Shown here one piece after another: positions 3,679-58,359 of a stretch of DNA of 64,000 nucleotides; positions within the stretch are counted from its first letter, which is position 1, and the number at the start of each line of letters is the position of its first letter. Made by a program: the position numbers and the translations under genes. The stretch comes from Escherichia phage Ecwhy_1. A model generated the notes under the pieces. It made no database searches. It was given only the letters and a program-made list of their open reading frames with translations, and was not told the DNA's origin. The stretch lies in sequence record MH791411.1; one strand, written 5' to 3'.

Positions 3679-5643
3679 ATGAGTATAAATCGAATTAGAG
3701 GTGATGGTGGTGTAATTATAGATAGTCAGGCATTTCTAGAATTACCTAAAGCACCGACTAAAGAAACCGCTGATGTGGTTAGATCAGGGATGATTAGATA
3801 CAATAAAGGATGGAAAGCATTTGAAGGTGTACTAGACTTTGAAGATGGTTCAATGGCATATCGACGTTTTGCAAACCTAGATGCAAACGGTAAACTTCTT
3901 ACTTCCCAATTACCAGATTCAGTAACTAGTGGTTTACAATTTGTTGGTACATATAATCCCATCCCAGATGATATCGATCCACCTTTAGCACAAACTCCAC
4001 TACCAGCACCATCACCATCGCTTAATGGTGATTATTATGTCGTTCGTGGTATAATGGATGCCGCACAAGCACATTATGAAGCAAATAATCCACAAACAAG
4101 TCCTGTTACATTTACACCTACAAATCCAACTGGACAAGGTAATTGGATTGAAATTTTATATTATGTTGACTCTAATCCAAATATATCTGGTGCTAAACTA
4201 GTAACATACGCTTTTGCTAGAATTATTACTGCATCTATTCCCAGTACTGGACATGATGGCCTTGAAAATTTAGCAACAGATACTGACTTGACCAAACCAT
4301 TTGCATCTGGTGTTCCAATGAACCAAACTGCACTTTCAGATGGTGATTGGATTATTATAACTGAAGATAAGAATATACGTCTTCGTCAGTCAAGAACAAG
4401 CATTTCCGCTGCTTCAGTATTATATGACAATACTGTAATGATTGCAAATCATCGCCAATTTAGAACAAACGCAGGGACCGTTCAAACATCCATAGATAAC
4501 GTTGTGATTGAGTGTTTACGTAGAACTGGCGATTCCATGTATAATGATGGAACAGACGGCTCTGGGCGTTTTGGGGTGGTGTATGGCAGTGCAGCAGCAC
4601 CAGCATTGACATTTAATAATAATCCGTTTGACCCAACGAACAACCCAGGTAATGACCCAACTAAGTGGTCCGATGCTAATACTGGTATATTCCATCCAGC
4701 AGATGATGCAATTGGTTTTACAACAGCCGGAACTGAGCGTGTTAGAATTAATAATGGAACATTAACATTATTCCAAACTACCGCTACACCAGCAGCTACG
4801 CCAGTAATACGTTTTGATAATGCATCAAACACAAACGTAGGGATAAGTGCAAGTAGTAATATTATTTCTTTAAGTTCAATGAATAAAGTTCAAGTTGAAT
4901 TTAAAAATGGTGAATCACATTTTCATGGAAATATTATTGTAGATGGATCAACATCACTAACTGGTGATTTAAACGCAGGTAACATCACTGCCAGCGGGAA
5001 TTTAGTTGTTAAAGGTAATACAACACTAGGCGACACTACTGGTGACACTATTACAGTTAATGGTGTTAGTACTTATAATGCAAATACTAATTTCAATGGA
5101 ACTAATAACAAATTCAAAAACATAAACTTACTAGAGAATGGTGTATTCACATTAGAAAGTACTACAAACCAAAGTGATATAAAACTACTTGGTGCAGACT
5201 TACGTTTCACTATGGGAAGTTATGCTGATGTAAGTATATATGATAACGGTGTTATTCGTACTCGTTTCAACCGATATGGTATTCAATTACCAGTACTGGC
5301 TACAATTGATAACTCAGTTGGTGTTGATGGTATGATTGCATACTCAAATACCGAACGTACATCGATGCAGAAGGTCCAAGGACAATGGGTTCCAATTGGT
5401 TCTGGTTCTGTACGTACTGACCCGTTTACTGCGTCAGCGTGGGTTTTAAACGGCTCATATTACACATTAACAGTAACTGCTAGTAACATAGTAACTGCTG
5501 AAATTCAAGAACTCGTAAGTACTGGTGTTTACACTCGTGTTGAAGTTGATAGTGTTACATTCAATGGAACAAGCGTAGTGTTCAGTATTCCTGCAACTCC
5601 TGATGTGAGATTTGCCGGACGTACACTGGTTACATTAAGATAA
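3679..5643 (+). CDS. tail fibre protein
   Basis: 654 aa; N-terminus (GMIRYNKGWKAFEG) is the type commonly seen at tail-fibre N-termini, followed by Asn/Thr/Gly-rich beta-type sequence; GAGGAAA RBS. Confidence 0.65.
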   Translation: MSINRIRGDGGVIIDSQAFLELPKAPTKETADVVRSGMIRYNKGWKAFEGVLDFEDGSMAYRRFANLDANGKLLTSQLPDSVTSGLQFVGTYNPIPDDIDPPLAQTPLPAPSPSLNGDYYVVRGIMDAAQAHYEANNPQTSPVTFTPTNPTGQGNWIEILYYVDSNPNISGAKLVTYAFARIITASIPSTGHDGLENLATDTDLTKPFASGVPMNQTALSDGDWIIITEDKNIRLRQSRTSISAASVLYDNTVMIANHRQFRTNAGTVQTSIDNVVIECLRRTGDSMYNDGTDGSGRFGVVYGSAAAPALTFNNNPFDPTNNPGNDPTKWSDANTGIFHPADDAIGFTTAGTERVRINNGTLTLFQTTATPAATPVIRFDNASNTNVGISASSNIISLSSMNKVQVEFKNGESHFHGNIIVDGSTSLTGDLNAGNITASGNLVVKGNTTLGDTTGDTITVNGVSTYNANTNFNGTNNKFKNINLLENGVFTLESTTNQSDIKLLGADLRFTMGSYADVSIYDNGVIRTRFNRYGIQLPVLATIDNSVGVDGMIAYSNTERTSMQKVQGQWVPIGSGSVRTDPFTASAWVLNGSYYTLTVTASNIVTAEIQELVSTGVYTRVEVDSVTFNGTSVVFSIPATPDVRFAGRTLVTLR

Positions 5644-6605: not shown

Positions 6606-7198
6606 TTTACGTCCTTGAAAAATGTAATAAAGTGTTCCATGTGTTTTTGTGTAGCATTACGTGAACCAATCCCAGTCCAATTACCGTGTGGTGCTGGTAT
6701 TGAGAATGTTTCAGTAAACTCTTTCAGTACTGTATCATAATAAAATACAGAGCGAGTGTTCATATCATAACAATATATTTCTGGATTGTCAACTGAATCC
6801 ATATACATCTGTACGGCCCATGCAGTTCCACCTGAAACTTGCGTAGGTGATGTAATATTTGCAATACAATATACTCTTTTTGTATTAAGTATCTGGTAAC
6901 TATTCCTTGCAAGTAAGTTATATACATACGAACCAGGCTTAGGAACTTTACGGCGTAAAGAGTAACATGCAATGTTTAATTGTTTTAATATTGAACTATC
7001 ACAAAGGATATTGGGTGGAATTTCTAATATAGTATTTTCATCTACGCTGCTTTGGTGACCCTTGAATGAAAAATTTATTACTTCAAATCCATTGTCTTTT
7101 GCATAGATAGAAAAAAGGCGGTCAGCACCTGCTGCCCCGCCACTGAAACATACATTAGATAAACCATTGATTGCTTCATCTAATTCTATTTTATTCAT
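6602..7198 (-). CDS. hypothetical protein with Rossmann-like glycine motif (SLOG/DprA-like?)
   Basis: 198 aa; motif FSGGAAGADRLFSIYA resembles the Gly-rich loop of SLOG/DprA-type folds; stop overlaps the thyA start (ATGA). Family assignment tentative. Confidence 0.5.
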   Translation of the reverse strand: MNKIELDEAINGLSNVCFSGGAAGADRLFSIYAKDNGFEVINFSFKGHQSSVDENTILEIPPNILCDSSILKQLNIACYSLRRKVPKPGSYVYNLLARNSYQILNTKRVYCIANITSPTQVSGGTAWAVQMYMDSVDNPEIYCYDMNTRSVFYYDTVLKEFTETFSIPAPHGNWTGIGSRNATQKHMEHFITFFKDVK

Positions 7199-7203
7199 TT
7201 ATA

Positions 7204-7857
7204 TTATTTTGCTTTACGTTCAGCAAATGCCTGTTTAACTTTCTCAATTGCTTTGGTTTGTGAAATTCCTTCTGGGATTTCAATATAGAAAGTTTTGCTA
7301 TCAGGTGCTACAGGTGTTGCTTGAACTTGTGGACGTAGAGATGGTTCTAAGTTGTAAGCACGTTCAAAGTGCTCTTTAGCCAACTGCTCATAACGTTGTG
7401 CATCTTTAAGTAGTTGCTCAACAATGGTAGCTTCTTCAACAGAAGTATCGACTTCTTGTGGCTTGAATGGGTTGTATTCTTTAACTTTACCATCTTCATG
7501 TTTTTTAGCATCATTATCATTGATTGCGTTGTTTAGAACATCAAGAGAAATCTTACTGTTTCCACCAACATGCATATCAATATCACAAGTACGTGCACGA
7601 CGCAAATGTTGTAGATTATGAAGAACATCTAGCATTTTGCGACCGTCTAGATGACCAATCTTATGCATAACTTCCCACAAATCTACATTCGATTGACCTT
7701 GATTCATTACTAAATCTGCAACAGATTGAGCATATGCTTCAGGAAGTGAGTCGCGATAAACAATGAGACAATGTTCTGGATCATCAGGGAGTGAACGCCA
7801 TACCACAAATACTCGTGAACCCGTATTACGTACTACACCAACGTGACGAATAGCCAT
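7204..7857 (-). CDS. hypothetical protein
   Basis: 217-aa ORF with ATG start, in a tight minus-strand array. Confidence 0.5.
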   Translation of the reverse strand: MAIRHVGVVRNTGSRVFVVWRSLPDDPEHCLIVYRDSLPEAYAQSVADLVMNQGQSNVDLWEVMHKIGHLDGRKMLDVLHNLQHLRRARTCDIDMHVGGNSKISLDVLNNAINDNDAKKHEDGKVKEYNPFKPQEVDTSVEEATIVEQLLKDAQRYEQLAKEHFERAYNLEPSLRPQVQATPVAPDSKTFYIEIPEGISQTKAIEKVKQAFAERKAK

Positions 7858-52122: not shown

Positions 52123-53928
52123 TTATTTGTGTTGTATACGCTCACAACATTCTTGTTGTTTGCCTTTGTTGAATCCACGAGACGATGGGTTCCCCAAATA
52201 TCCAGAAACACGACGAATCACTGAGATTGTCTTCTCATTGCGATTATCACATACTGGACAATGAAAACCGTGTTTATCTACACTGAACTCACCTTTATAC
52301 CCACACTCGTAACACTGGTCAATTGGCTGGTTGATGCCAAAATATGGAATCTTTGTGTAAGCGTAATTGACTAAAGTCTCAAGTGCTTGAATATTGTTAC
52401 TTAGGTTGGGTGATTCCACATAACTGATGTTTCCTCCATTACTGAGGTAAGCAAAGCCCTCTTCGTAGCTCCACTTATCAAATGCAGAACTTTCTACCCA
52501 TACTGGTTGATGGAAGGAATTTGTGATGTAATCACGTTTTAGTACTGAAGGGTATTTAGATTCGATGCAACGTGCAAATTTGTAGCAAAGTGACTCTGCT
52601 GGGGTTCCATATAGACTAAAAGCTATATTACTCTCTTTTTTGAACTCATCGCATTTTACTTTCATATAATTCAGTACTGACATACAGAACTCCTTACTGA
52701 TAGAACCAGTCAGAATTTCTGAACATTCAACTAAACCAACGTAACCAATACTAATACTAGCATATCCGTTATAAAATAGCTTGTCAATCGTTTCTTCTGC
52801 CCCTAAACGTGAAAGTGCACCTTCCATGAACAAAATCGGATTCTGCTTCGCTTTTGTGCCTTTTAAACGCTCTACGCGGTTCATCTGAGCACGATATGCA
52901 ATATTCATATGCTCGTCTATTTTATCAAAAAACTCTCCATCTGAGGCACTTTCAAGAGCAATTAGAGGTAAATTGATAGAAACCACGCCTAAGTTGAAAC
53001 GACCGTTATATTGCTCATTTCCATTGGAATCTTCCCATTTTCCTAAAAATGAACGACAACCCATAGGAGTTACTGCTGTACTGCTACTTCCTGTAACTTT
53101 GTGATTTAACGGCACAGAAACGAAGTCTGGGTAGATTCTCTTCGATGCACAACGCATTGCCAACTGTTTCATGTCATAGTTGCAATCATCGCTATTCATG
53201 TTGATTCCGTCCTGTAAAAAGAAAATTACTTTAGGAAACACAGGAGTGATCTTATCTTTACCTAAACCATTCTCATGTACTTTTAAGTACTGTTCAGTGA
53301 TTAATTTACCAAATTTTGAAGTATTCAGTCCTAAACTAAGAGAAATGAATGCTGCTTGACCATTTGTACTAATCATTGAATTTGTCTGGTAAAGTAAGGT
53401 TTGACACCCATCATAGACTTCTTTTCGTAATTCTTCCTCAATGTATTCAGTACTGAGATTATATGCCTTTTGCTTCGCTAATAGCTTATCCCACGACTTT
53501 TGGACGTAAGGTTCAAGACCAACGTCGATATGAGCCAACGATTGACCACCGTACTGGGAACTAGCAACAGCTTGTACAATTTGTGTCAGTACTGTACATG
53601 CTACACTAAAACTCTTTGGTTCTTCAATTTTGGCACAACCAATGGTAAATCCATTTTTTAGCATATCTGGGTAGTTAACTAAGCAACAGTTAGTTAATGG
53701 GCTGATATAGTAGTCTAAATCATGAATATGACCATAACCATCATTATGCCACTGCATTAGCTCCTTTGGAATAACATCTTGTGAATAATGCTTAGATAGG
53801 ATACCAGCAAGTAAATCCCTGTGTGTATTGACGCATTTCGCATCTTTGTTTGCATTTTCATTTGTAAGATCAGTATTGCTCTGATTTAGGAAATTTGTTA
53901 CGTCAGTATATAATTTATCTAATTGCAT
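52123..53928 (-). CDS. nrdD: anaerobic ribonucleoside-triphosphate reductase (class III RNR)
   Basis: NENANKD ... RDLLAGILSKH near the N-terminus; C-terminal zinc ribbon (CYECG ... CPVCDN) and glycyl-radical loop RRVSGYLGNP. Track start 53955 has no RBS; the ATG at 53928 has AAGGAAAG and gives a T4-like N-terminal length. No intron. Confidence 0.9.
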   Translation of the reverse strand: MQLDKLYTDVTNFLNQSNTDLTNENANKDAKCVNTHRDLLAGILSKHYSQDVIPKELMQWHNDGYGHIHDLDYYISPLTNCCLVNYPDMLKNGFTIGCAKIEEPKSFSVACTVLTQIVQAVASSQYGGQSLAHIDVGLEPYVQKSWDKLLAKQKAYNLSTEYIEEELRKEVYDGCQTLLYQTNSMISTNGQAAFISLSLGLNTSKFGKLITEQYLKVHENGLGKDKITPVFPKVIFFLQDGINMNSDDCNYDMKQLAMRCASKRIYPDFVSVPLNHKVTGSSSTAVTPMGCRSFLGKWEDSNGNEQYNGRFNLGVVSINLPLIALESASDGEFFDKIDEHMNIAYRAQMNRVERLKGTKAKQNPILFMEGALSRLGAEETIDKLFYNGYASISIGYVGLVECSEILTGSISKEFCMSVLNYMKVKCDEFKKESNIAFSLYGTPAESLCYKFARCIESKYPSVLKRDYITNSFHQPVWVESSAFDKWSYEEGFAYLSNGGNISYVESPNLSNNIQALETLVNYAYTKIPYFGINQPIDQCYECGYKGEFSVDKHGFHCPVCDNRNEKTISVIRRVSGYLGNPSSRGFNKGKQQECCERIQHK

Positions 53929-54063
53929 TTTACTTTCCTTGTATTTTGAAATCATCTGGGGGTGAAGTTATTTAACATCACCAGACACCATTATAGCGTC
54001 AGAACAGGGTATTTCTCTTGACCTATATCAAGGAAAGGTCACATTGCTTTATATTTGTACAAA

Positions 54064-54087
54064 TAGAAAAAGCACCACTAGGGTGCT
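54064..54087 (-). terminator. hairpin with short U-run (weak terminator) upstream of nrdD
   Basis: Hairpin agcacc-actag-ggtgct (54071-54087); on the minus strand followed by tttttct. Confidence 0.45.
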
Positions 54088-54204
54088 TTAAAGTACTGCT
54101 AATATAAAAACTGCCCAAATTAGCAGTACTACATTGGTTGGAGCGGCAAAAAACATATATGCAGCAATTGCACTGCATCCGATTACAAGTTTAGCTAGTC
54201 TCAT
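54088..54204 (-). CDS. 38-aa hydrophobic micro-protein (single TM helix)
   Basis: Not in the ORF track (under 60 aa). ATG at 54204 with GGAG RBS; translation MRLAKLVIGCSAIAAYMFFAAPTNVVLLIWAVFILAVL; stop abuts the hairpin. Confidence 0.35.
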   Translation of the reverse strand: MRLAKLVIGCSAIAAYMFFAAPTNVVLLIWAVFILAVL

Positions 54205-55006: not shown

Positions 55007-55408
55007 TTATTCTGGATCTTTGTTTTTATCCACTGTATTGTTTTTGTTTAGATCAATACCGAGTGCCACTGCTGCTGCCAGGTTTTCAATACCATCACCA
55101 TTCAAACGAAAACCTTGCTTGAGTAGGTTTTGTGTGTAGTATTTGTTGTAGAAAAATGCCCATACAAACATGGCGATGAAACCTAATGTACCAAAACTAA
55201 TAACGTTCAGGATTACAAAGATGACAAACGCACCGATGAATGTTAGAAAATCAGAACGGAATAGTGCAGGGATTGGACCAAAAAAGAATGTAGTCCATGA
55301 AAAACCATAGAAACCGTCTTTCTTGATTCCAGTACTTTCATTTTTTAAAGAAATAGTTTTAGCCATTGTTGACTCCTTACATGTTATGATTTGGTATACA
55401 GTACACAA
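55007..55408 (-). CDS. membrane protein (two predicted TM helices)
   Basis: 133 aa; hydrophobic stretches TTFFFGPIPALF and FIGAFVIFVILNVISFGTLGFIAMFVWAFF. Confidence 0.45.
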   Translation of the reverse strand: MCTVYQIITCKESTMAKTISLKNESTGIKKDGFYGFSWTTFFFGPIPALFRSDFLTFIGAFVIFVILNVISFGTLGFIAMFVWAFFYNKYYTQNLLKQGFRLNGDGIENLAAAVALGIDLNKNNTVDKNKDPE

Positions 55409-55646
55409 ATACTAAATTGGAAAAGTGTTCAGTACTGGAATATTTTGCTAAATCTGTTATATGGAAGTAGACATCTTTGAAATTATCATTCTCAAATGTC
55501 GTTATTTGTAAACAGTGTGTGGGTCTGAAAATATAATAATAAAATATATCATCTTCAGCCACAACTGTATGGTTTTTGTAGCGTTCAATTTTTTTCATGT
55601 GTGAATAATTTCTTTTACCCCATATTCCATAATTGCCAACGTACAA
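55377..55646 (-). CDS. hypothetical small protein
   Basis: 89-aa ORF overlapping both neighbours; uncertain. Confidence 0.3.
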   Translation of the reverse strand: MYVGNYGIWGKRNYSHMKKIERYKNHTVVAEDDIFYYYIFRPTHCLQITTFENDNFKDVYFHITDLAKYSSTEHFSNLVFVYCIPNHNM

Positions 55647-55963
55647 ATCTCACAAGGCTTGGCAGGGACTGGAATACCATCTTTACTTACCCGTGCAATC
55701 AACAAAGTATGAACTTCAGCACGAGAAGCCAGCAAACATGAGATTTCAGCATGAAGAAATTCACCTTGTGGACGACCAGCACGGATTGCAAAACCTTTCT
55801 GTACTGGGTGAGTATGTGTGTAAGAATTAGTACGTGTTGCCAATACACGACCTTTCTTATCAAGTGCACGAGCAATCACACGATAACGTTTGTAGCTCCC
55901 CACTTGCTCGATTGGTGGCATCCGTCGCAATTCTTCAATTAGTTTCTCAAGTTTACGATTCAT
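55595..55963 (-). CDS. zinc-dependent cytidine/deoxycytidylate-type deaminase domain protein
   Basis: 122 aa; the deaminase zinc-ligand pair HAE (FLHAEISCLL) and PCxxC (AKPCEICTL) at typical spacing; shorter than classical dCMP deaminases. Confidence 0.5.
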   Translation of the reverse strand: MNRKLEKLIEELRRMPPIEQVGSYKRYRVIARALDKKGRVLATRTNSYTHTHPVQKGFAIRAGRPQGEFLHAEISCLLASRAEVHTLLIARVSKDGIPVPAKPCEICTLAIMEYGVKEIIHT

Positions 55964-56586
55964 AAGTCTAAGTCTATACCCTTTTCAAATGATTTCTCTA
56001 GAACCCAAAGTTTACATTCTTCACTCTCCAAATGCATCTTTGCCTCTTTCTGTTGTTCTATTGTACAAGACTTTATAAATTCACGCAAGGCTTCTATTGT
56101 ACTTTTTATATTTTTTATGTCTTCCAGAATTGTTTCTTTGGCTTCAGCATCAATTACAGATGAACTCCACCCGTGACGTTCTTCCCAAATTGTTTTTGTT
56201 GAATTGTAAATTGATGATGTAGAAATGACTGCATGGACCTTATTAAACGTATCGTCTGCTTCTTGTTGGGTGTAATCACCATAAGTGTTTAGCACATTTT
56301 TGTATAGTTCATCAATTGCCTCATCATAAGTATCACCACCGCAATCTAACTCATAATCATGTGCTTGTACCCATTCATCATCTTGCTCAACGTACATAGG
56401 TGAGATGAATTCTACCCAAAATTGTGTCTTTGTATTCAGAGCTTTAAATGATTCAATGCGGTTTGTGATTGGACACACATCATGTGGTTCGATATCAATC
56501 CTTGGGGGAACCATATCTCCGTTGATGAATTTAGGATGGCCCATAATCCACCAGTACTTTTCAGATGTAGTCATTGTAATCTCCAA
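55960..56586 (-). CDS. hypothetical acidic protein
   Basis: 208-aa ORF. Confidence 0.45.
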   Translation of the reverse strand: MEITMTTSEKYWWIMGHPKFINGDMVPPRIDIEPHDVCPITNRIESFKALNTKTQFWVEFISPMYVEQDDEWVQAHDYELDCGGDTYDEAIDELYKNVLNTYGDYTQQEADDTFNKVHAVISTSSIYNSTKTIWEERHGWSSSVIDAEAKETILEDIKNIKSTIEALREFIKSCTIEQQKEAKMHLESEECKLWVLEKSFEKGIDLDL

Positions 56587-56619
56587 ATAAAAAGTACTGC
56601 CACTATAACAGTACTGATA

Positions 56620-56979
56620 TTAAATGTAACGTTTCTTTTTATAATCATACCCTACTTCTTTGTAAAAGTCAAACAAAGAAGCATGGGTAAACGTAGGTAA
56701 CAGATCATATGGGTGCTGATAGTTCGCAATACCAACAACTGCCAGCATTGATTCAGCCGTTCTGGAATTTTCACTATCCCATTCATCTAAACGCCACAGT
56801 GAACAAAGAACTTCACGTTCGTGTTGCTTACCAAGAAAGAATTCAGCTTCACGGTCACGAAATGCACCTACGCTGATAGTACTTTTGTACCAGTCTTTCT
56901 CACCATAAGCTGGCATACGGATAATGTGTTTTTCTTGAGCTTCACCAAAGCGATGAAGAAATGCCACATAATCACTCAT
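56620..56979 (-). CDS. hypothetical protein
   Basis: 119-aa ORF; ATG overlaps the stop of the upstream micro-ORF. Confidence 0.45.
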   Translation of the reverse strand: MSDYVAFLHRFGEAQEKHIIRMPAYGEKDWYKSTISVGAFRDREAEFFLGKQHEREVLCSLWRLDEWDSENSRTAESMLAVVGIANYQHPYDLLPTFTHASLFDFYKEVGYDYKKKRYI

Positions 56980-57146: not shown

Positions 57147-57391
57147 TGTGCATCCTTTGGAATAGTGTTAAGGCGTGTACGGTTTACAATCTTCCTGCAC
57201 ATGAGATTAAGATCTTGCCCATGACGCATCTCATGGCAAGCATACAATGTACCATCATAGTTAAGTTTAGTCAAATTCTGGCGAATGAACTCTGCATCAG
57301 CCTCCTGAACTTTAGGTGCACAGCCACAGAGAGTAATGGACACAAATATTGTTAATGTAATGAATATATTTTTCATGATATTTTTTCTCAT
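57143..57391 (-). CDS. putative small lipoprotein
   Basis: 82 aa; N-terminal hydrophobic signal ending ITLCGC (lipobox-like). Confidence 0.4.
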   Translation of the reverse strand: MRKNIMKNIFITLTIFVSITLCGCAPKVQEADAEFIRQNLTKLNYDGTLYACHEMRHGQDLNLMCRKIVNRTRLNTIPKDAQ

Positions 57392-58359
57392 TTTGGGCTA
57401 TAACCACTTTTAATTTTAGAAATTACTTTCTTCTCGAAGAACTTACGTGCTTCTTCAATAGTTTTGAATTCTTCACCATCTGTAGTACTGGTTTTACCAA
57501 TAGCACCATACTCAATAATTACTTCACACACTGGAGCATTCAATTCAATATTATAGAATTTGTTCGAAGAACCGTGAACATATTCCAAATGTACATTATC
57601 AGGAATGTTCTGCACATAATCATAGTTCTTGAAGATAATATCAATCATATTTTCTTCACCGCGATCAGGAAATAGTTCAGTATTATTCAGTACTAAACGC
57701 TGTGCAGCACGGAACATATCAAAATATTGTTCACCTTTTTTCAGTTCTTTTGTATCAGAACAGAAATGACCATAGTATTCTACATAATCATTCCAAGGAT
57801 AAATTCCTTCATCAGCAGTTTCAAAAGCGTAAGTTTCATCTTGTGGAACTTTAAAACCACGAGTTTTTGGATGAGAAATTAAGCACAGTGAAATATTATG
57901 ACCGATATCTGAATCATCAGTAATACTACCACCAACCATATGAACAACATTTTTAATACGTTCAAAATCTACATCTTCAATTTCATGATACATTAAATGT
58001 TCTTCAATATTACTTACTAGTAATGAATTACCATTTCCTGCATCGAATTCAAAAATGAAAAGTTCTACACAATCTTCTTCTTTCATTTCAATAGTATCAC
58101 TGAGTTTAATATACTCATTTTTTACTTGTTCAATATTTTCATGAGAACCAAAACTATAACGAGAACTGATATAACTACTACCATCCAACCATCCCATATC
58201 CCAAGGTTCTTCTGACATGTATTCGGTGCTATAGAAATCAGTCAAATCATCTCTCTGAGTACAAACCGTAAGAGAACGAACATTATTAAGACCTTGAACT
58301 TCAAGATTCAGTACTGTAGTGTTGCCGATTTTTTGTTCAGAAATAATTTTAGTTTTCAT
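57388..58359 (-). CDS. hypothetical protein with C-terminal WGR-like domain
   Basis: 323 aa; C-terminal ~80 aa (SSNKFYNIELNAPVCEVIIEYGAIGKTSTTDGEEFKTIEEARKFFEKKVISKIKSGY) follows the WGR pattern, with YGAIG in place of WGRIG. Confidence 0.45.
   Translation of the reverse strand: MKTKIISEQKIGNTTVLNLEVQGLNNVRSLTVCTQRDDLTDFYSTEYMSEEPWDMGWLDGSSYISSRYSFGSHENIEQVKNEYIKLSDTIEMKEEDCVELFIFEFDAGNGNSLLVSNIEEHLMYHEIEDVDFERIKNVVHMVGGSITDDSDIGHNISLCLISHPKTRGFKVPQDETYAFETADEGIYPWNDYVEYYGHFCSDTKELKKGEQYFDMFRAAQRLVLNNTELFPDRGEENMIDIIFKNYDYVQNIPDNVHLEYVHGSSNKFYNIELNAPVCEVIIEYGAIGKTSTTDGEEFKTIEEARKFFEKKVISKIKSGYSPK

Follow-up and report, generated by a model that had tools for sequence, protein, structure and literature searches.

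A compact, highly basic zinc deaminase of an essentially virus-restricted family in a Rak2-like jumbo phage

The window that we analysed, a stretch of 64,000 nucleotides of Escherichia phage Ecwhy_1 (MH791411.1), contains a gene for a very short zinc deaminase. The annotation of the gene was already known; the novel part is the virus-restricted, truncated and highly basic clade to which it belongs. We place the protein in a clade of its own within the CDA superfamily, outside all of the named families, and tentatively propose that it acts on a free cytosine nucleotide, as an unregulated deaminase in an auxiliary pyrimidine route.

The gene and its annotation

The coding sequence (55595..55963, minus strand) runs from ATG to TGA and specifies 122 aa. 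The same sequence is annotated as CDS g233 (XBS49315.1) in Escherichia phage fEgEco12 (PP777464.1), a Rak2/PBECO4-like jumbo phage of 374.7 kb, to which the 4.5 kb of the window that were compared are 100% identical; we use the name g233 for the gene in the window as well. It is no orphan: it carries the GenBank label "CMP/dCMP-type deaminase domain-containing protein", it is mentioned in the paper on phage CBB, which speaks of "two CMP/dCMP deaminases" (PMC5259590), and it is a member of a very large viral family. Mentions of that family were found at the level of annotation only, in the papers on RaK2, CBB (PMC5259590), phAPEC6 and Sharanji, and the searched literature yielded no experimental work on it. 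An earlier note on this DNA had called the protein shorter than the classical dCMP deaminases, which is correct: g212, the canonical enzyme that this phage encodes, has 157 aa and T4 cd has 193 aa (PDB sequence).

A motif scan located the two parts of the zinc site, both on the minus strand: H71-A72-E73 (HAE; codons at 55745..55753), which provides a zinc-ligand His and the catalytic Glu at the N-terminus of helix alpha2, and P103-C104-E-I-C107 (PCEIC; 55643..55657), which provides two zinc-ligand Cys at the N-terminus of helix alpha3. The only cysteines of g233 are C76, C104 and C107. Two further minus-strand stretches stand out. One is the family signature segment N46...R64 (55765..55828; N-S-Y-x-[K/H]-T-H-P-x-Q...A...G), apparent from the conservation table and hhalign; it holds an extra helix (53-61) between beta2 and alpha2 in the structural model, and stands in place of the second-zinc region of true dCMP deaminases when aligned with the canonical enzymes by hhalign. 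The other consists of R91 and about 11 inserted residues (VSKDGIPVPAK) that separate beta3 from PCxxC (55658..55693), seen in the conservation and as a gap of 10 residues in hhalign.

The deaminase domain

The HMM search that the earlier note had proposed connects g233 to Pfam family PF00383 (dCMP_cyt_deam_1) with 26.2 bits (E 7.7e-6, residues 23-120), which exceeds the curated gathering threshold of 25 bits by a narrow margin. All family members that were scanned match the same model (112/112, best E 3e-16), and g233 also matches PHROG 174, "dCMP deaminase" (E 1e-11). Across 160 aligned relatives the zinc-site residues are (nearly) invariant: E73, C104 and C107 each occur in 160/160, H71 and P103 each in 159/160. 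Strongly conserved as well are R91 (157/160, 98%), N46 (98%), H52 and P53 (both 91%) and Q55 (88%), together with A72, [K]50, T51, A59, G63 and G96. Comparison of g233 with a phage 121Q-type homologue gave a dN/dS of 0.035 at a dS of 0.84. By prediction and conservation, the deaminase domain is catalytically intact and under strong purifying selection.

The AlphaFold (AF2) model of g233, built on 16 homologues, has a mean pLDDT of 90.5. The predicted structure has the three alpha/beta/alpha layers of a deaminase fold, and its zinc ligands sit at the N-terminal ends of alpha2 and alpha3. Its N-terminal half comprises a1 (3-14), b1 (28-34), b2 (40-45) and the extra helix (53-61), its C-terminal half a2 (72-80, from HAE), b3 (86-92), a3 (105-114, from PCxxC) and b4 (118-121). 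The chain ends at T122, directly after b4, and of the five-stranded core sheet beta5 is absent from the model. HAE and PCxxC, whose misplacement would have spoken against a deaminase, are in register with the fold in both the model and the PF00383 alignment. The original reading of g233 as a zinc deaminase with HAE...PCxxC is borne out by the above-threshold profile match, the ligands conserved in 160 relatives and the modelled fold.

Size and distribution of the family

When 1.84 billion cluster representatives were searched exhaustively with HMMER, 4,515 clusters (50% identity) matched at E<=1e-3 and 1,079 at the stricter E<=1e-10; the 150 matched clusters listed of the 4,515 are all single-domain proteins of 96-166 aa. 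Roughly half of the family, including every Rak2-like sequence, ends 15-17 residues past PCxxC and has no fifth strand, and the remaining members have 10-15 further residues at the C-terminus. In the model of a long relative (P0046, pLDDT 91.2) these extra residues form a beta4-beta5 hairpin, which in the fold classification of Iyer et al. 2011 is reportedly the CDA/BSD-type arrangement.

A single peptide pattern retrieved 459 relatives from IMG/VR; applied to 185,579 bacterial and archaeal species (one genome per species) the same pattern gave only 12 matches, all of them on taxonomically scattered MAG contigs (eleven of 2-15 kb, one of 142 kb) and 0 in the isolate genomes of that set. A clade-specific pattern found no match in the bacterial-genome scan. 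The family is essentially virus-restricted. Among isolated phages it is present in 195 records, which include Rak2-like jumbo phages, phiKZ-like phages (PHIKZ260), phages of Aeromonas, Xanthomonas, Cobetia and Ralstonia, and T4-like cyanophages; Klebsiella phage phiKp_21 was rejected as an independent lineage, as it is a fragment of a Rak2-like genome. Some sources automatically name members of the family "TadA".

Relation to known deaminases

A search of the PDB sequences with g233 alone gave no meaningful match (best E 0.16, for an unrelated protein), and the matches to known deaminases needed the family profile. With that profile the best match is the dCMP deaminase of cyanophage S-TIM5 (4P9C, 138 aa; E 2.4e-11), further dCMP deaminases being the ComEB-type enzyme of S. 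mutans (2.7e-8), human DCTD (5.6e-7) and T4 cd (2.3e-6). Interleaved with these are tRNA deaminases (M. capricolum 4.4e-9, S. pyogenes TadA 6.8e-6), and lower in the list come B. subtilis CDA (2e-3) and E. coli TadA (0.012). Alignment of the family with the canonical phage dCMP deaminases by hhalign gave a probability of 98.7% and an E of 1.8e-16. The likeness to the dCMP deaminases comprises the HAE/PCxxC zinc site, the long beta2-alpha2 connection, the Asn after beta2 (N46), the [F/Y]-L-HAE context (compare "FVLHAE" of S-TIM5), and the phage-borne occurrence in nucleotide-metabolism neighbourhoods. The residues of the T4 enzyme that contact dC include Asn40, Ala105, Glu106 and Pro131 (PMC12697855), and the counterparts of these four are kept in the mini family as N46, A72, E73 and P103.

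Various hallmarks of the dCMP deaminases are nevertheless missing from g233. Of the motif G-[Y/W]-N-G after beta2 the Asn alone is kept (T-N46-S-Y), whereas in the alignment of canonical dCMP deaminases S-x-G-x-N is invariant and G41 nearly so; HAExNA, with an Asn (N88) that is invariant in the canonical alignment, is replaced by HAEISCL in g233 and by HAEIxAL in the family. The second, structural zinc site, formed in the T4 enzyme by Cys19, Cys49, His94 and Glu102 (PMC12697855), is absent: C19 and C49 are invariant in the canonical alignment and have no counterpart in g233 by hhalign, although the site is not strictly universal, as some true dCMP deaminases have been reported without it. In the dCMP deaminases beta3 abuts PCxxC, where g233 has its insert with the conserved R91, and beta4 is followed by helix 4, beta5 and a C-terminal Tyr (Y131, nearly invariant), all of which g233 lacks. 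The pI also differs (about 6.4 versus 9.8). None of the NCBIfam dCMP-deaminase models matches g233; its two NCBIfam hits, both far below threshold, are to cytidine deaminase (TIGR01354, 12.8 bits, cut-off 113.65) and to the anti-phage dCTP deaminase (NF041025, 10.6 bits, cut-off 400).

The resemblance to TadA/ADAT2 (PDB 2B3J, 6L2M, 1Z3A) lies in the family motif HAEIxAL, which is close to the HAEIMAL of TadA. The beta2-alpha2 loop of TadA is short and ends in D-P-T-A-HAE, whereas g233 has 24 residues of other sequence between N46 and H71. Helix 4, beta5 and the C-terminal helices with which TadA binds the tRNA anticodon arm are also missing, enterobacterial TadA is far less basic than the mini family, and the NCBIfam TadA models do not match g233.

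By structure, Foldseek ranks tetrameric cytidine deaminases and blasticidin-S deaminase (PDB 4WIF, 3DMO, 2Z3H; E 2e-4, TM about 0.5) highest among the solved matches of the g233 model, and CDA aligns over more residues (109) than the other enzymes compared. These enzymes share with g233 their size (120-135 aa) and a spacer between beta3 and PCxxC, an insert that neither the canonical dCMP deaminases nor TadA possess, and the long relatives of the mini family are predicted to end in a similar beta4-beta5 hairpin. In contrast to g233, however, CDA/BSD have Cys as first zinc ligand (Cys-Ala-Glu instead of HAE), the motif PCGxCRQ and the sugar-binding motif N-x-E, neither of which occurs in g233, and a beta5, of which g233 has none at all. 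Assignment to a sub-family by fold was dropped, since the models of g233 and of a longer relative resemble TadA, dCMP deaminase, CDA and guanine deaminase to about the same degree. As for the polymorphic-toxin deaminases (MafB19, DddA, SsdA), no above-threshold model, fusion to a delivery domain or adjacent immunity gene was found for g233, and toxin or defence was rejected as the main reading on the Pfam/NCBIfam scans, the family search and the conservation.

Charge

With a pI of 9.84, g233 is the sole ORF that basic among the 40 ORFs of 90-160 aa in the window, the proteome of which has a median pI of 5.3. The property is family-wide: the median pI of the mini deaminases is 9.63 (97% above 8.5) with a net charge of +9 on about 120 residues, versus 6.44 (3% above 8.5) and -2 for the homologues of the canonical dCMP deaminase (Mann-Whitney p 1e-48). 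Basic residues are conserved in the active-site loops (K/R26, K50, R91, K102). Such basicity is unusual for an enzyme with a small soluble substrate. A basic pI as the hallmark of a tRNA deaminase was rejected, since enterobacterial TadA has a median pI of 7.1 and a net charge of 0.

Genomic context

Immediately upstream of the deaminase gene lies g232 (55960..56586, minus strand; 208 aa, pI 4.5, PHROG 16370), the TGA of which overlaps the ATG of the deaminase (ATGA), an arrangement that suggests translational coupling; g232 adjoins the deaminase in 9/9 Rak2-like loci examined. Downstream, the ATG of g234 (55377..55598, minus strand; 73 aa, no family match) overlaps the TGA of the deaminase in the same way (ATGA). 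A consensus scan found a terminator-like hairpin with T-run just upstream of g232 (56593..56615, minus strand), a region overlapped by promoter-like sites (56602-56630 and 56644-56672), and three terminator-like hairpins between the block of small genes and nrdD (54069..54178, minus strand). The former region is the probable start and the latter hairpins are the probable end of the transcription unit of the deaminase, and together they flank eight small minus-strand genes, including that of the deaminase. For the gene of the phiKZ homologue, PHIKZ260, a separate primary TSS that is active early in infection has been reported (PMC8244752).

In the clade of the window, nrdD and nrdG are found 1.6-4 kb from the deaminase. 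Of ten flanking proteins nine had no Pfam match and the tenth is a WGR-domain protein, while PHROGs returned only function-unknown families for the flanking proteins. No protein neighbour that is conserved across lineages was found, and consequently no pathway can be read from the neighbourhood; the metagenome contigs of two relatives, of about 2 kb or less, had uninformative neighbours. ThyX is encoded within 5 kb of the mini deaminase in 6/54 lineages, and glutaredoxin and 5'(3')-deoxyribonucleotidase recur within the same distance in a minority of other lineages.

The phage also has a canonical dCMP deaminase of the T4-cd kind, g212 (157 aa, HAEMNAL...PCYTC), encoded about 10 kb beyond the end of the window; it is 40% identical to T4-type cd, and members of its family were found in 3,618 phage records. 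The Rak2-like relatives examined have all kept both the canonical dCMP deaminase and the mini enzyme. In phiKZ and Xanthomonas phage DES1, on the other hand, scans of the complete genomes recovered the mini enzyme as the sole protein with a CDA motif or CDA profile; DES1 has ThyX and RNR, and phiKZ has ThyA (gp235) and an annotated dCTP deaminase of the dUTPase fold (gp214/217).

We also compared the linkage to tRNA genes. A tRNA gene lies no more than 2 kb away, without exception in the same orientation and in several cases at 0-11 bp, in 34/115 mini-deaminase loci from IMG/VR and phages, versus 1/80 control loci of canonical dCMP deaminases; after clustering of the deaminases at 70% identity the numbers are 14/54 versus 1/32 (Fisher p 0.007). 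In DES1 the single tRNA gene of the phage is found 370 bp upstream of the mini deaminase. The Rak2-like loci lack tRNA genes within 8 kb, the 64-kb window lacks them altogether, and the phiKZ tRNAs lie about 20 kb away. The linked tRNAs are of many kinds, few with A34, and many of the tRNA-linked loci have a common gene set (amidoligase/GATase, ligase), so that these loci may represent one broad phage lineage and not independent events. Editing of A34 in phage tRNAs was rejected as a general explanation, given the few linked A34 tRNAs and the absence of linked tRNAs in the clade of the window.

Candidate functions

The earlier note had left the substrate class wide (free nucleotide, tRNA or nucleic acid), and rightly so, as the sequence cannot assign the substrate. 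A free nucleotide is ranked first because of the closeness to the dCMP deaminases by profile, the kept dC-contact positions and the nucleotide-metabolism setting. The genomes of DES1 (ThyX, RNR) and phiKZ (ThyA), in which the mini enzyme is the sole protein with a CDA motif, and the early TSS of PHIKZ260 speak for it as well. According to this proposal g233 would be a single-domain, zinc-dependent hydrolytic deaminase of the CDA superfamily in which H71, C104 and C107 hold the Zn2+-bound water and E73 shuttles the proton, so that the exocyclic amine of cytosine would be exchanged for oxygen (C to U); the chemistry is extrapolated from the superfamily, and ligands and fold are as predicted. The mini clade would then be a virus-restricted sister group of the dCMP deaminases from which the second zinc site and the C-terminal part with helix 4 and beta5 have disappeared, strand beta5 having gone altogether in the Rak2-like clade. 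The enzyme probably works as an oligomer, which we infer from the open active site that a four-stranded subunit of 122 residues leaves. The first candidate for its reaction would be dCMP to dUMP, the alternatives being dCTP, CMP, deoxycytidine and 5-modified dCMP, within an early-expressed auxiliary pyrimidine route beside g212, thymidylate synthase and the nearby NrdD/NrdG reductase. The suggestion that the enzyme feeds dUMP to thymidylate synthase stands in part: a free nucleotide stays the first candidate, but with g212 in the same phage this dUMP is not an unfilled need. What counts against a free nucleotide are the missing dCMP-deaminase features, the basic charge, the linkage to tRNA genes elsewhere and the equidistance of the fold. 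In addition, the dUMP already supplied by the canonical dCMP deaminase (Rak2-like phages) or the dCTP deaminase (phiKZ) argues for a job of the mini enzyme that is not redundant with these.

The reading ranked second, conceivable though we have our doubts, is that g233 is a polynucleotide deaminase whose basic surface binds RNA or DNA and which converts C to U or, less likely, A to I. Its targets could be phage or host tRNA, other RNA or ssDNA; by editing them the phage might adjust decoding, evade defences that attack tRNAs or harm the nucleic acid of the host. Consistent with such an activity are the family-wide basic charge (median pI 9.63, net +9), the conserved basic residues round the active site, the linkage to tRNA genes in other lineages (14/54 versus 1/32 after clustering), which in DES1 concerns the sole tRNA of the phage (370 bp upstream), and a role that would not be redundant with g212 or with Dcd of phiKZ. 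Yet nearby tRNA genes are lacking from the Rak2-like loci and the window, and those of phiKZ are about 20 kb off; the adjacent tRNAs are of many kinds with few A34, the linked loci may form one broad lineage, and genuine enterobacterial TadA, itself acting on tRNA, is not basic (median pI 7.1), while both its C-terminal tRNA-binding helices and its DPTAHAE motif are absent from g233. We regard it as rather unlikely that the virus-restricted family as a whole, with the smallest known deaminases (96-135 aa, here with four strands), acts on nucleic acid and not on free nucleotides. In the most attractive version of this idea, tRNA or other RNA would be edited in the course of infection, from C to U (or A to I), which would account for the conserved net charge of about +9, for the gene so often lying inside phage tRNA arrays and for the presence of a normal dCMP deaminase beside the mini enzyme.

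Deamination of another small molecule, such as a nucleoside antibiotic, a purine, a pterin/riboflavin-type intermediate or a nucleotide-derived host immune signal, seems improbable. The Foldseek ranking of tetrameric CDA and blasticidin-S deaminase, the CDA/BSD-like spacing between beta3 and PCxxC and the predicted beta4-beta5 hairpin at the end of P0046 point in that direction, but by sequence profile CDA, guanine deaminase and RibD rank far below the dCMP deaminases, the TIGR01354 score (12.8 bits versus 113.65) is far from its cut-off, the zinc ligand is His and not the Cys of tetrameric CDA/BSD, and the neighbouring genes suggest no such pathway. Least probable is a non-catalytic remnant retained for binding or regulation, for instance to modulate the canonical deaminase, as Tad3/ADAT3 does for Tad2. 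The loss of beta5 and of everything past beta4 in the Rak2-like clade and the complete canonical deaminase in the same phage would fit such a pseudo-enzyme; however, Tad3-type pseudo-enzymes have lost the catalytic Glu, which together with the zinc ligands is (near-)invariant in the 160 relatives, including every Rak2-like sequence, and phiKZ and DES1 have no other CDA-fold protein that could serve as partner.

Significance

If g233 is simply a second dCMP deaminase, it is an everyday part of the nucleotide metabolism of phages, and its present annotation already says so. The odd properties of the family, i.e. its virus-only range, extreme basicity, linkage to tRNA genes and loss of a core strand, would weigh more if they reflect a different substrate. 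Thousands of viral genes are called "dCMP deaminase", "TadA" or "hypothetical" on labels that rest on no experiment. Should the family act on nucleic acid, phages would bring to the conflict with their hosts a novel RNA/DNA cytosine deaminase of about 100-120 residues, which would also offer an exceptionally compact scaffold for base-editing tools.

tRNA genes in the vicinity of the mini deaminase relatives

The genetic context of the relatives of the mini deaminase (g233) was often marked by tRNA genes: a tRNA was found within 2 kb of a family member in 34 of the 115 loci, as compared to a single one of the 80 control loci carrying a canonical dCMP deaminase. The difference was retained after clustering at 70%, with 14/54 loci for the mini deaminase and 1/32 for the canonical control (p 0.007). 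The IMG/VR loci showed that the phage tRNA arrays frequently enclose or adjoin the deaminase gene, on the same strand and with a gap of down to 0-11 bp (L003, at 4559-4634; L017-L024, L037-L039, L072, L084-L088, L095-L097, L115, L117 and L120). No such linkage was found in the Rak2-like clade, to which the window belongs, and no tRNA genes were found in the 64-kb window itself. Various unusual phage tRNAs were encountered close to family members, including one with a CTA anticodon (amber-suppressor-type), tRNA-Ser(ACT), tRNA-Val(AAC) and several tRNA-Ile(TAT) (L023, 5713-5788; L085-L087, about 7127-7216; L108, 1307-1382; L072/L095-L097/L120).

The mini deaminase and the canonical dCMP deaminase

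Escherichia phage fEgEco12 (L001) also encodes a canonical, T4-cd-like dCMP deaminase of 157 aa (g212; HAEMNAL...PCYTC), some 10 kb from the mini deaminase (L001 24293-24766, which corresponds to about 66292-66765 in window coordinates, just beyond the window), and the phage therefore has two deaminases of the CDA fold. Near the canonical enzyme the Rak2-like phages carry genes for a Sir2-like protein and a NUDIX hydrolase, to which Klebsiella phage phiKp_21 adds an NMN adenylyltransferase/Nudix protein and a nicotinate phosphoribosyltransferase; together these genes (L001 20664-21964; L040 25905-28516) look like a set for NAD metabolism or salvage.

Of the ORFs in the window (1-64000) that are 60 aa or longer and do not overlap, 92 in number, the minus strand holds 87. 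The proteins predicted from the window are acidic as a set, with a median pI of 5.3. The block of small genes that includes the mini deaminase is directly followed downstream by the genes for the anaerobic ribonucleotide reductase NrdD and its activase NrdG, with a DUF4326 gene between the two (window 52123-53955, minus strand; L001 9341-11929). Three terminator-like hairpins lie within 110 bp immediately upstream of nrdD (54069-54178, minus strand), a stretch that is overlapped by the tiny annotated ORFs g237 and g238. The gene at 57388-58359 (minus strand), 1.4 kb upstream of the mini deaminase, encodes a protein of 323 aa that carries a WGR domain at its C-terminus (Pfam E 1.3e-10).

Family variants and shared gene content

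The phiKZ homologue, PHIKZ260 (L047 47159-47518), has HSE as catalytic motif instead of HAE and is the sole CDA-like protein of its genome, which also encodes an annotated dCTP deaminase of the dUTPase fold, split over gp214 and gp217. On one viral contig (L025 7986-8603) the deaminase ORF extends to 205 aa, past ...AKPCSICEGG. The family sequence disappears beyond PCxxC, and the extension thus probably reflects a frameshift or an assembly error and not a fusion.

Many mid-size viral contigs with a mini deaminase carry genes for a glutamine amidotransferase, an amidoligase and a COOH-NH2 ligase (L111 4725-6135; L065 4870-6710; L051 8703-10043; L003/L042). The version in L003/L042, from Xanthomonas phage DES1, consists of an ATP-grasp protein, a glutamine amidotransferase and a gamma-glutamylcyclotransferase. 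As so many of these contigs hold the same set, the loci that combine it with the mini deaminase may represent one broad phage lineage.
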